In this document: one piece after another, positions 25,911 through 37,192 of the stretch
Layout: every line of letters starts with the position of its first letter
How positions within the stretch are numbered: the stretch's first letter is position 1
Assembly (NCBI GenBank): GCA_040220235.1
Contig: JAVJTO010000055.1
Length of the DNA stretch: 64,000 bases
Direction: 5' to 3' (one strand)
DNA from: Coleofasciculus sp. B1-GNL1-01
Lineage (GTDB): Bacteria; Cyanobacteriota; Cyanobacteriia; Cyanobacteriales; Coleofasciculaceae
Position numbers and translations under genes: made by a program
The notes under the pieces: generated by a model
Told to the model about the DNA's origin: nothing
Databases searched by the model: none
What the model saw: the letters and a program-made list of their open reading frames with translations, nothing else

Positions 25911-27384
25911 AAAACTCCGTCCTCAATAACGAGTGTTCGTTCAGAACACGATGTTATAGGGCGGGGATACATGGACTCCCTCAAGCTTATCGATTCCCCT
26001 CGATGGGGATGAGATAAGCAAATACATGAAAACTTGACACAACATTATAGCTCATGTAAGTTATCATGTTTTCATGCTGACAATGACCTACGAATACAAG
26101 TTACAACCAACAGCCGAACAGATTGCCACCATCGAGCAAACGCTAGATGTATGTCGTTCTGTTTGGAATTTTGCGCTTCGTCAGCGTAAAGATTGGTGTA
26201 ACTCTCGTAAGTCACCTGTTAATGCTTGTTCGATTCAATCTGAGTACATCATTTCAGCCAATGAACCTTTTCCTAACTATCACTTATCAGCCAAACAGCT
26301 CACAGAAGCTAAGAACCAATATCCTCAACTAAAAACAGTTCATTCTCAGGTTCTACAACAGGTACTAAGAACCTTGGATAGAGCATGGGATGATATGAAA
26401 ACCAGGGGATTCGGTTTTCCACGCTTCAAAAATAAGTATCGGATGCGTTCGTTTGTTTTTCCTCAGCTAGGGAAAGACCCAATTAGAAATGATGCGATCA
26501 AGTTCCCTAAATTGGGATGGGTTCAATGGCGAGGGTCCAGACCAATTCCAGAAGGGTTTGAAGTCAGGCAAGCAAGGGTTGTTAGAAAAGCATCTGGTTA
26601 CTTTGTCATGCTGTCTTTACAGCTAAATGTCCATGTTCCCAGTCCCATGCCTCACGGTCATCCGCGAGGATTAGATTTGGGTTACGACAAATTTGTAGCT
26701 ACTAGTGACGGTGAAGAGATTAAGCGACCTCGATTCCTGAAAACCATGCAGCGTAAGCTTAAATTGCTACAACGCAGGTTAAAGAATAAGCAAAAAAGCT
26801 CAAATAATCGACATAAGCTAAACCAAAAAATAGCTAGGCTACATCAGCGAATATCTGACACCAGAAAGGACTGGCACTATAAATTAAGCCATCATCTTTG
26901 CGATGGTGCTGGCATGGTATTTGTTGAGGATATCAACTTTGTTAGTTGGCAAAGAGGAATGCTGTCAAAACACAGTGCTGATGCTGGTTTTGGTCAGTTT
27001 GTCAGTATTCTTGAATGGGTGTGTTTTCGCCGTAATGTGTATTTTGCCAAAGTCAACAAGGATGGTACAAGTCAAACTTGTCCTAACTGTGGTACACATA
27101 CAGGCAAGAAAACTTTAGATATCAGATTTCACCATTGCCATGAGTGTGGATACAAAACTACAAGAGATGTAGCCAGCTCTCAAGAAATCAGAAATCGTGG
27201 AATAGCAGCCGTCGGGCAGACGGTAGTAGAAAATGTCTGTGGACTGGAAGCGACGGGGAGTATCGGTCACGATGCTCGCTTTTGGCACGGGACGAAGCAG
27301 AAACCCAGCATCGCAAGGTGTTGGAATCCCCTACTTCAAAGACATCGAGCATAGCGAGATGGCTTAAGTAGGGGAGGATGTCAA
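25911..27384 (+). mobile_element. IS200/IS605-superfamily element with tnpB only (IS1341-like)
   Basis: Left-end hairpin (CTCCGTCCT...AGGGCGGGG), tnpB, and right-end hairpin TCCCCTACTT...AAGTAGGGGA ending in TGTCAA at 27384. Confidence 0.85.
26074..27354 (+). CDS. tnpB: RNA-guided endonuclease TnpB
   Basis: HTH YEYKLQPT, GFPRFK, RuvC GLDLG / VEDIN / RDVAS, and Zn ribbon CPNC..CHEC. Confidence 0.95.
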   Translation: MLTMTYEYKLQPTAEQIATIEQTLDVCRSVWNFALRQRKDWCNSRKSPVNACSIQSEYIISANEPFPNYHLSAKQLTEAKNQYPQLKTVHSQVLQQVLRTLDRAWDDMKTRGFGFPRFKNKYRMRSFVFPQLGKDPIRNDAIKFPKLGWVQWRGSRPIPEGFEVRQARVVRKASGYFVMLSLQLNVHVPSPMPHGHPRGLDLGYDKFVATSDGEEIKRPRFLKTMQRKLKLLQRRLKNKQKSSNNRHKLNQKIARLHQRISDTRKDWHYKLSHHLCDGAGMVFVEDINFVSWQRGMLSKHSADAGFGQFVSILEWVCFRRNVYFAKVNKDGTSQTCPNCGTHTGKKTLDIRFHHCHECGYKTTRDVASSQEIRNRGIAAVGQTVVENVCGLEATGSIGHDARFWHGTKQKPSIARCWNPLLQRHRA

Positions 27385-34633: not shown

Positions 34634-36175
<1,542 letters not shown>

Positions 36176-36228
36176 TCCCTTCCGTGTTTCGAGTCATTAG
36201 TCATGAGGCTGTTCTAAGCTGATGACTA

Positions 36229-36452
36229 TTCACCAACCTTGCCCTAAAAGGGACAAGGATTGACGCCAGTTTGGACAATGTAAGCGGTGAATAGCTTTTT
36301 GAGCCTAGTTCTGGCACAGACTTCTGAATACTTCCCTAGTTCGGACTATCTCTAAGCCTAATTGGTTAGGCGTTGGGTAATGCCAAGACATCTTGGACTG
36401 GGTAGGCGAAGGGACTTATTACAGGGCGAGCTGGTTCCTGGGATTATCTCCA
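36229..36452 (+). ncRNA. Orphan IscB/IsrB-type omegaRNA (HEARO-like) scaffold without an ORF
   Basis: TTCACCAACCTTGCCCTAAAAGGGACAAGG end hairpin; CTATTCACC/GGTGAATAG long-range stem; CTTCTGAATACTTCCCTAGTTCGGA hairpin and distal GGCGAAGGGA; ends GGATTATCTCC with no following ATG/ORF. Recognised from memory of cyanobacterial iscB leaders. Confidence 0.75.
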
Positions 36453-36520
36453 TTTAAAAACCAGCATTTAATTGTAAAGCTGTCTGATCAAGACAGGGTT
36501 TGGGACTCAAAGGAGTTTCG

Positions 36521-36931
36521 ATGAGCTTAACTGTTCGAGTTGTTTCTCCCGACAAAATTGTCTGGGATTCTAATGCCGAAGAAGTGATTTTGCCCAGTAC
36601 GACGGGTCAACTGGGTATATTGACGGGTCACGCCCCCCTGTTGTCAGCACTGGACATTGGTGTAATGCGAGTTCGTCCGGGTAAAGACTGGATACCCATC
36701 GCCCTCATGGGCGGATTTGCCGAAGTTGAAAATGATGAAGTAACCATTCTCGTTAATGGGGCGGAACAAGGAGAGACGATTGACAAGGAAGCCGCACGAG
36801 AAGCTTTCTCTCAAGCCCAAGAGCGTCTCAACCAAGTCCAAACCAGTGAGAATCGGCAAGAAAAAATTCAAGCCACGCAAGCTTTAAAGAGAGCAAGAGC
36901 TCGCTTTCAAGCGGCGGGTGGTATGGTTTGA
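36521..36931 (+). CDS. atpC: ATP synthase F1 epsilon subunit
   Basis: [28 protein letters not shown] and KRARAR motifs; AAGGAG RBS. Confidence 0.97.
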
Positions 36932-36958
36932 TGGGATAGAGCATTGCCCTTGAAACAT

Positions 36959-36999
36959 AAAGGAGCTATCCAGCTAACTAACGTCTGGATAGCTCCTTT
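36959..36999 (+). terminator. Terminator hairpin after atpC
   Basis: AAAGGAGCTATCCAG...CTGGATAGCTCCTTT 15-bp stem. Confidence 0.75.
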
Positions 37000-37192
37000 G
37001 TATAGGAGAAGGCAGCAGGAGTCAGGATGGGTAGAAGGAAAAAGTATCCCAGGGATAAAGGGGTTTGGGTCATCGGATTTGGTATTACTCGCTATTTTGT
37101 ATGGGTTTTTTTCCCCAGCTCCCCCAGCTCCCAGACGTGCCATGGCACGTCTCTACATTGCTCCCCCAGCTCCCCTAGCTCCGCTTCATCCC

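Follow-up and report, generated by a model that had tools for sequence, protein, structure and literature searches.

What stands between the genes for the beta and epsilon subunits of ATP synthase in this cyanobacterium, and what has it become there? Within the window (the whole stretch of 64,000 nucleotides that was analysed), atpD and atpC are separated by a spacer whose predicted length of 345 bp is confirmed (36176-36520, with the atpD stop ending at 36175 and the atpC ATG starting at 36521). The naming of atpD varies among cyanobacteria. The original prediction placed an intact-looking, IscB-type omegaRNA without an open reading frame (ORF) on the sense strand of this operon. An ORF-less omegaRNA in sense orientation is indeed found, although it is of the IsrB type and not of the IscB type. 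What had been missed is that the RNA belongs to a mobile element, that this element ends at the atpC ATG, and that the native leader has been lost.

Our main reading, to which we give a probability of roughly 0.7, is that the spacer holds a non-autonomous element of the IS200/IS605 superfamily (an ISC1-derived PATE), composed of two transposase-binding ends and an omegaRNA of the IsrB type, and that its atpC-side end now is the atpC leader. Herein, G000 denotes the genome of the window and G001 onward the other genomes compared. The features are collected in Table 1.

Table 1. Features of the atpD-atpC region (positions in the window)
Feature	Position	Strand	Basis
atpD (ATP synthase beta)	34736..36175	+	ORF list; stop 36173-36175; start inferred from protein sequence
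Native spacer remnant, 53 nt, with truncated native stem-loop (about 36191-36228)	36176..36228	+	Aligns to empty alleles
Would-be 20-nt guide (host flank)	36209..36228	+	Match to G001 empty allele
ORF-less ISC1/PATE-type transposon, 292 bp, 5'-TT ... CG-3', 5' of ATGA	36229..36520	+	
IsrB-type omegaRNA scaffold core (S1, SL1, SL2, nexus stem, SL4-SL6)	36229..36415	+	HEARO, model R1, covariation
SL1, subterminal hairpin of the guide-side transposon end	36237..36258	+	Identical in 4 copies; 7/8 pairs with compensatory change
SL2, with 3-nt deletion after 36264	36260..36278	+	Family alignment
Adaptor pseudoknot	SL2 loop 36266-36269 with SL5 loop 36362-36365	+	Family covariation
Nexus pseudoknot, TCCCT 36333-36337 / AGGGA 36410-36414	36333..36414	+	100% and 94% paired, compensatory changes
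Stem typical of the ORF-less family, around the former isrB start region	36430..36465	+	99% paired in 50 sequences, a figure partly built into the pattern used to find the family
Subterminal hairpin of the target-side transposon end	36476..36501	+	Same end type in isrB-coding and TnpB-coding elements of other genomes
Element-borne Shine-Dalgarno (SD) AAAGGAG, 5 nt before the atpC ATG	36509..36515	+	Anti-SD duplex -8.4 kcal/mol
atpC (ATP synthase epsilon, 136 aa)	36521..36931	+	Pfam PF02823 and PF00401

An ORF-less transposon with an IsrB-type omegaRNA

That the unit is an ORF-less transposon of the IsrB type (ISC1/PATE) is practically certain. Three sister copies on other contigs are 93-94% identical over 36229-36524 in unrelated flanks, giving four copies in this genome, and the termini (fixed from 17 loci of the genus) read TTCACC ... 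GTTTCG, followed by ATGA. The element inserts 5' of ATGA without target duplication: of ten other sites at which both flanks could be tested, seven are clean insertions, two show a 1-nt difference, and one has a short duplicated end. Copies are dispersed and polymorphic for presence and absence, with filled and empty alleles among congeners. The cyanobacterial elements ISC1-1_MA and IS605B-1_MA have TT/GT...CG termini and an N|ATGA target (Kapitonov, Makarova, Koonin 2016, PMC4810608). As described there, ISC1 elements share with ours the termini, the ATGA insertion without duplication, the subterminal hairpins, the cyanobacterial host, and an end common to TnpB elements, whereas the atpC element has no ORF, sits on a start codon (a term that never occurs in the main text of PMC4810608), and has cost its host gene the native leader.

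A Y1 transposase would move the element in trans. There are 13 matches to such transposases in the genome (PF01797); the element ends were not seen in the 200/150 nt examined around the five best of these genes, and an isrB- or TnpA-coding element with the same ends was not found in the genome. Several further observations concern related insertions. At one locus the element occupies two ATGA motifs 7 nt apart in G002 and G003 (L078, L079), G000 being the empty site. One sister copy (L094:1790-1801, G000:C71) lies at a multi-copy HTH-like gene, whose native pre-ATG bases stand in place of the final bases of the element, yielding a 7-nt duplication. The target ATG of the copy on C102 is mutated to ACG in two genomes (L086, L103, L265-L268), and at the corresponding empty site AGAGG precedes a conserved short frame that begins MKN and may be a small gene. 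Elsewhere in the window, a TnpB C-terminal domain (26989-27189) lies inside a 438-aa frame, a likely terminator hairpin stands downstream of atpC near 36964-36999, and a repeat-rich patch after atpC (36950-37190) differs wholesale between congeners.

The covariance models differ in how well they recognize the RNA. A full-length match to Rfam HEARO (RF02033), which shares the 5' stem and core motifs with the element, covers 36229-36422 at 25.5 bits (E 0.0042), below the gathering cut-off of 83 bits; since even the intact sister copies reach at most 33.8 bits, this model fits the IsrB type poorly. Model R1, built from 29 isrB-linked omegaRNAs and no ORF-less copy, matches 36229-36454 at 184 bits (E 4e-44), inside the range of the isrB-linked RNAs of the genome (89-206 bits), and gives no match in two of two empty alleles. 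The minimum free energy (z -1.41) is not significant on its own.

Much of the anatomy originally predicted can be recognized, with corrections. The end hairpin (SL1) was found where claimed. The 9-bp stem CTATTCACC (36226-36234) / GGTGAATAG (36286-36294) is present, but only six of its nine pairs belong to the element, its CTA being host flank and the last 3 nt of the guide. The loop pairing exists as the 5-bp nexus pseudoknot, although the 7-mers quoted for it are not complementary; all five pairs are intact in the atpC copy and covary in the family. GGATTATCTCC (36441-36451) does mark the place of a protein start, as it directly precedes the isrB ATG in isrB-linked relatives of the same genome; in the atpC copy it is followed by ATT, with no ORF of 60 aa within the element and no isrB in cis. 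The unit does not end at 36452, as had been proposed, and continues to 36520 with a stem (36430-36465), the second transposon-end hairpin, and the SD.

Nor is the RNA intact. The 3-nt deletion in SL2 occurs in one of 51 aligned family members, the atpC copy itself, and weakens the predicted SL2 from -3.2 to -0.8 kcal/mol; contigs from RNA libraries carry three extra letters at 36264 in four of four runs. In the adaptor pseudoknot, the loop-loop pairs are intact (97% in the family) and three SL2 stem pairs are deleted. Pairing is intact in the two pseudoknots and in every long stem apart from SL2. The omegaRNA of DtIsrB (PMC9581776), as described, has the same S1/SL1/SL2 guide adaptor, SL2-SL5 adaptor and SL4 nexus pseudoknots (group B), and NTGA TAM; compared with it, the atpC copy has a shorter scaffold, no isrB in cis, and a damaged SL2.

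The guide would be taken from the 5' flank, as had been supposed. It matches the empty allele of G001 at 20/20 positions plus ATGA (0 mismatches) and those of four other congeners with 4-5 mismatches, and has no target in its own genome with fewer than five mismatches plus NTGA. Its 3' seed is predicted to be paired in the remnant of the host hairpin (unpaired 0.11; 0.44 if the RNA is trimmed). Read-through transcription into the element would come from atpD upstream, and the plus strand of the spacer holds no promoter-like or terminator-like site, in agreement with the co-transcription proposed for the operon.

Related ORF-less copies form a family. Searching with a pattern that describes their additional 3' stem yielded 76 loci, 75 of them cyanobacterial (the one non-cyanobacterial chance match was dropped), to which 27 further loci were added; the right end was present in 96/102, the six loci lacking it were dropped, and 77 insertion sites resulted (76 after merging one more pair). 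Across 50 distinct sequences, pairing stands at 94%, 50/76 pairs show changes on both sides, and covariation exceeds all 500 shuffles and all slides, both pseudoknots included. A single origin of the ORF-less omegaRNA cores was rejected (p-AU 0.003, under a tree model that ignores pairing). Because the cores fail to group as a single clade distinct from isrB-linked RNAs, part of the covariation is inherited, and it is no proof of selection on ORF-less copies. PATEs encoding omegaRNAs, as described by Meers et al. (bioRxiv 10.1101/2023.03.14.532601), likewise have two ends, no protein, and an omegaRNA for use in trans, whereas the family here is of the IsrB type, spans an order, has its own 3' stem, and does not consist of local deletion products.

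The search for partner genes and scaffold copies in the genome gave, next to the three sisters, eight unbroken isrB frames of 370-391 aa with RuvC I and III motifs and no HNH pattern. The IsrB protein tested from this genome carries RRXRR only and matches 8DMB at E 3e-45. In a comparison of sets that differ in kinship, isrB occurs in 39/52 carrier genomes (38/51 without a duplicate) and in 31/120 sampled genomes; 13 carriers have no isrB match, two of them near-closed genomes. Side observations include an isrB frame without a stop that continues in frame into nifE as an 886-aa open frame (L225, G111), isrB interrupted at related places by apparent group II intron sequence (L036, L037, L040 on G000:C14, C74, C34; by eye), and more omegaRNA matches without an adjacent RRXRR match on G000:C29, C64, C76, C159, and C141, some at contig ends. 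In G028, from another family, an unrelated ORF-less HEARO of the IscB type (L065:849-1125, 67 bits) lies in sense orientation in the atpD-atpC spacer and begins on the atpD stop codon.

Loss of the native leader at atpC and the allele of a second species

Eight congeners were tried, two of which gave no usable atpC locus; among the six that did, five are empty and one (G002) shares the element. The empty alleles have spacers of 115-155 bp and carry 62 extra nt (100 in one case) that are absent from the filled allele. The left junction in the empty allele is CTA|ATGA, which lies 62 nt upstream of the start codon and within the 3' arm of a native stem-loop; the right junction is the atpC start codon itself, whose first four bases are the ATGA target motif. 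Upstream of the element, 36176..36228 can be aligned to the empty alleles of G001, G004, G006, and G007. Both junctions lie at an ATGA, as expected for this transposon type, but the 62-nt native atpC leader between them is missing, unlike at the sister insertions. Two insertions recombining with each other, or a deletion spanning the stretch from one ATGA to the other, may have caused this loss. An RNA-library contig of the empty allele has the same joint, skipping the 292 nt and carrying 62 letters between. The native stem-loop is predicted at -22.4 kcal/mol and its remnant after insertion at -13.8 kcal/mol.

Since no other sequence is left before atpC, the element end very likely serves as the atpC leader. 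It also provides the only SD-like site before the gene: native atpC leaders are SD-less (anti-SD duplex +0.4 to +0.5 kcal/mol), and precise excision is predicted to leave a duplex of -0.6 kcal/mol. If atpC is now translated from the SD of the element, such an excision would leave the gene without a leader. That atpC depends on the SD itself seems only slightly more probable than the opposite. The element leader is predicted to be less often unpaired (0.25) than the native ones (0.42-0.51), folding tighter; only 30% of the long ORFs in the genome have an SD, so that atpC might tolerate other leaders; and, across the family, SD ends are not needed for sitting on starts, which speaks against dependence.

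The second filled allele bears on what has been kept. Between G000 and G002 there are four differences over about 640 bp (about 36383 to 37027), a shared block that runs from within the element to just past atpC. The atpC genes of the two are 99.5% identical and their atpD genes 94.1%, while the atpC of other congeners is at 91-96%; in its 5' half, the G002 element is 97.6% identical to another copy type and 90.8% to the G000 copy. Transfer between species of a block starting inside the element would be the simplest reading of this pattern. The G002 element (R1 score 125.7 bits) lacks the guide, the host hairpin, the 5' strand of S1, and SL1. With these losses it cannot guide as the G000 copy would, and it presumably cannot move.

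The truncated allele occurs in four of four metagenome hits and in three of four RNA-library runs, in which contigs bridge atpD to the element and the element to atpC. These libraries are contigs, possibly with DNA and none with the G000 allele itself, and carry no information on transcript ends, strand, or level. In run X2, contig depth is about equal over atpD (162), element (163), and atpC (177), although contigs cannot measure levels. The element-atpC junction is present in 2/52 family genomes. Because the G000 copy is damaged, and because G002 shares the 3' half plus atpC but has lost the guide and the terminal hairpin, it looks, from a comparison of these alleles, as though the leader role is kept and the guide role is decaying at atpC.

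Start codons as landing sites

The position on a start codon is not peculiar to atpC. At 42/77 sites of the ORF-less family (41/76 merged), an ORF of at least 80 aa begins at the ATGA. The background is 5.5% of 73,980 ATGA in the genome, or 20% of non-disruptive ATGA; this background comes from one genome, and the sites are non-independent by kinship or age. Among ATGA in the flanks, 83/1715 open ORFs, and half of the long genes of the genome begin with ATGA. A scan of 50 downstream ORFs gave Pfam matches for 39 (among them atpH, S16, L19, ACP, Ycf4, ChlI, TatC, CP12, and metallothionein); PirA and Psb34 were named by NCBIfam, and prfB, counted as a Pfam miss, by eye. Core genes with an element on their start codon include atpC, atpH, rpsP, rplS, acpP, prfB, ycf4, chlI, murE, and trpE. 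In two related genomes (L109, L134), an element lies on the start of an acyl carrier protein gene, one of these proteins having a 24-aa N-terminal insertion.

Such landing is not special to the ORF-less family either, a proposal that was rejected as isrB-coding elements behave alike (raw 32/50, p 0.36). From 59 isrB loci we dropped one that was truncated, six without an ATGA end, and three with mis-called junctions (judged by eye, all counted as starts), which leaves 29/47 on starts, with folD, leuD, nifE, trpE, murQ, murE, pntB, metH, and dapB among the genes concerned.

Elements with the same end provide the control. Taking 110 of the >400 matches to the shared end and dropping three odd ends, we found on starts 10/34 with antisense TnpB, 24/62 unassigned, and 7/9 with an omegaRNA or isrB. 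Pooled omegaRNA elements (70/123) differ from the TnpB elements (10/34) at p 0.006; against the background, TnpB gives p 0.12 and all non-omegaRNA elements p 0.0003. According to these counts, ATGA alone explains part of the landing, not all. An SD in the element end as its driver was considered and rejected, with 23/42 SD ends and 27/35 non-SD ends on starts (p 0.055, in the opposite direction).

As reported by Meers et al. (bioRxiv 10.1101/2023.03.14.532601), IscB-type RNA needs outside transcription in the sense of an upstream gene, and the landing bias fits such a need. Polarity tolerance and copy age are confounders of this bias, and kin are not independent. The proposed mechanism would then be that copies in transcribed leaders obtain their guide from host read-through, that IsrB is loaded in trans, and that the empty site is nicked, resulting in retention. 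A downstream start-codon bias, seen in our family, is unreported for PATEs in the portion of bioRxiv 10.1101/2023.03.14.532601 available to us.

Competing explanations and significance

Next to the leader reading, the best-surviving alternative is that of a neutral fossil: a chance insertion at ATGA, tolerated by lax initiation and drifting, with the shared atpC block being ordinary recombination between congeners. We hold this to be the lesser probability, at well under an even chance. It would account for the absence of the element from five of six congeners, the lesions in both alleles, an SD that the family does not require, and congener flank identities of 91 to 99% in 200-bp bins, and non-SD initiation is common in cyanobacteria (PMC5397173). 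It sits badly, however, with the fact that the native leader is gone, so that the element end must serve as leader, with deletions on the 5' side only, with a shared block whose borders lie within the element and just past atpC, and with a threefold start-codon enrichment that needs some filter.

Less probable again, and in our view unlikely, is a functional trans-acting omegaRNA: matured from the operon mRNA and loaded into an IsrB of the genome, it would direct the nicking of incoming or excised empty atpD-atpC alleles and so drive its own retention. The well-preserved scaffold (both pseudoknots, all long stems except SL2, and an R1 score in the isrB-linked range), the perfect guide plus ATGA target in G001, the eight isrB frames that are unbroken and carry RuvC I and III, and the share of carriers with isrB (38/51 vs 31/120) agree with it, as do reports of standalone omegaRNAs as outlined in PMC9581776 and bioRxiv 10.1101/2023.03.14.532601. 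The SL2 deletion is unique to the atpC copy, however, and mutations of the adaptor pseudoknot abolished nicking by DtIsrB (Hirano et al. 2022, PMC9581776, PDB 8DMB). Moreover, the nearest isrB-linked RNA in the genome is only about 75% identical to the atpC copy, and 13 carriers, two of them near-closed, have no isrB match. Loading of a protein encoded elsewhere, as originally suggested, thus has its candidate proteins, but trans function is weak for the atpC copy because SL2 is damaged, the seed is paired, and the related G002 allele has lost guide, S1, and SL1.

The beta and epsilon genes are needed at 3:1, and a strong structure between them, together with the second, unrelated HEARO in the same spacer of G028 as an only hint, could suggest a co-opted processing or stability element setting this ratio, as the original prediction also offered; this is very improbable, as the insertion is polymorphic within the genus (absent from 5/6 usable congeners), the native -22.4 kcal/mol stem-loop, which was replaced and not added to, is the better candidate, contig depth (which cannot measure levels) is about equal over atpD, element, and atpC, and the literature search found no paper on it.

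For the leader reading, we expect guide function at atpC to be probably decaying, with the 3' end held in place as leader. IStrons are IS605-family elements that soften insertion harm by splicing themselves out, whereas the atpC element stays in the mRNA as a leader. Neisseria REP2 and Borrelia IR-A are repeats that place a ribosome-binding site ahead of genes; as described, REP2 brings a promoter, a ribosome-binding site, and its own ATG, and is not OMEGA, in contrast to the atpC element (PMC3184786). The ATGA target, standalone omegaRNAs, and PATEs that carry an omegaRNA have already been described in print (PMC4810608, PMC9581776, bioRxiv 10.1101/2023.03.14.532601, PMC13565253). Among the titles and abstracts searched, none was found on start-codon landing or leader replacement by such elements. 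The present analysis adds the control with TnpB elements, the loss of the leader, and the block shared across species.

Compared with TnpB elements that share their end, omegaRNA elements lie on core-gene start codons about twice as often. This bias puts into testable form the open question of whether transcribed sites are where IscB/IsrB elements insert or where they are kept, and at atpC three natural alleles exist (empty, filled, and filled plus truncated) with which to ask whether a transposon end has turned into a core-gene leader. More speculatively, and with the odds rather against it, ATGA-targeting omegaRNA transposons may be leader parasites, kept on start codons because this place gives host transcription for the guide and because their end works as a portable leader. 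At atpC, this leader would have become irreplaceable, crossed species, and be on its way to immobilization: domestication in progress.
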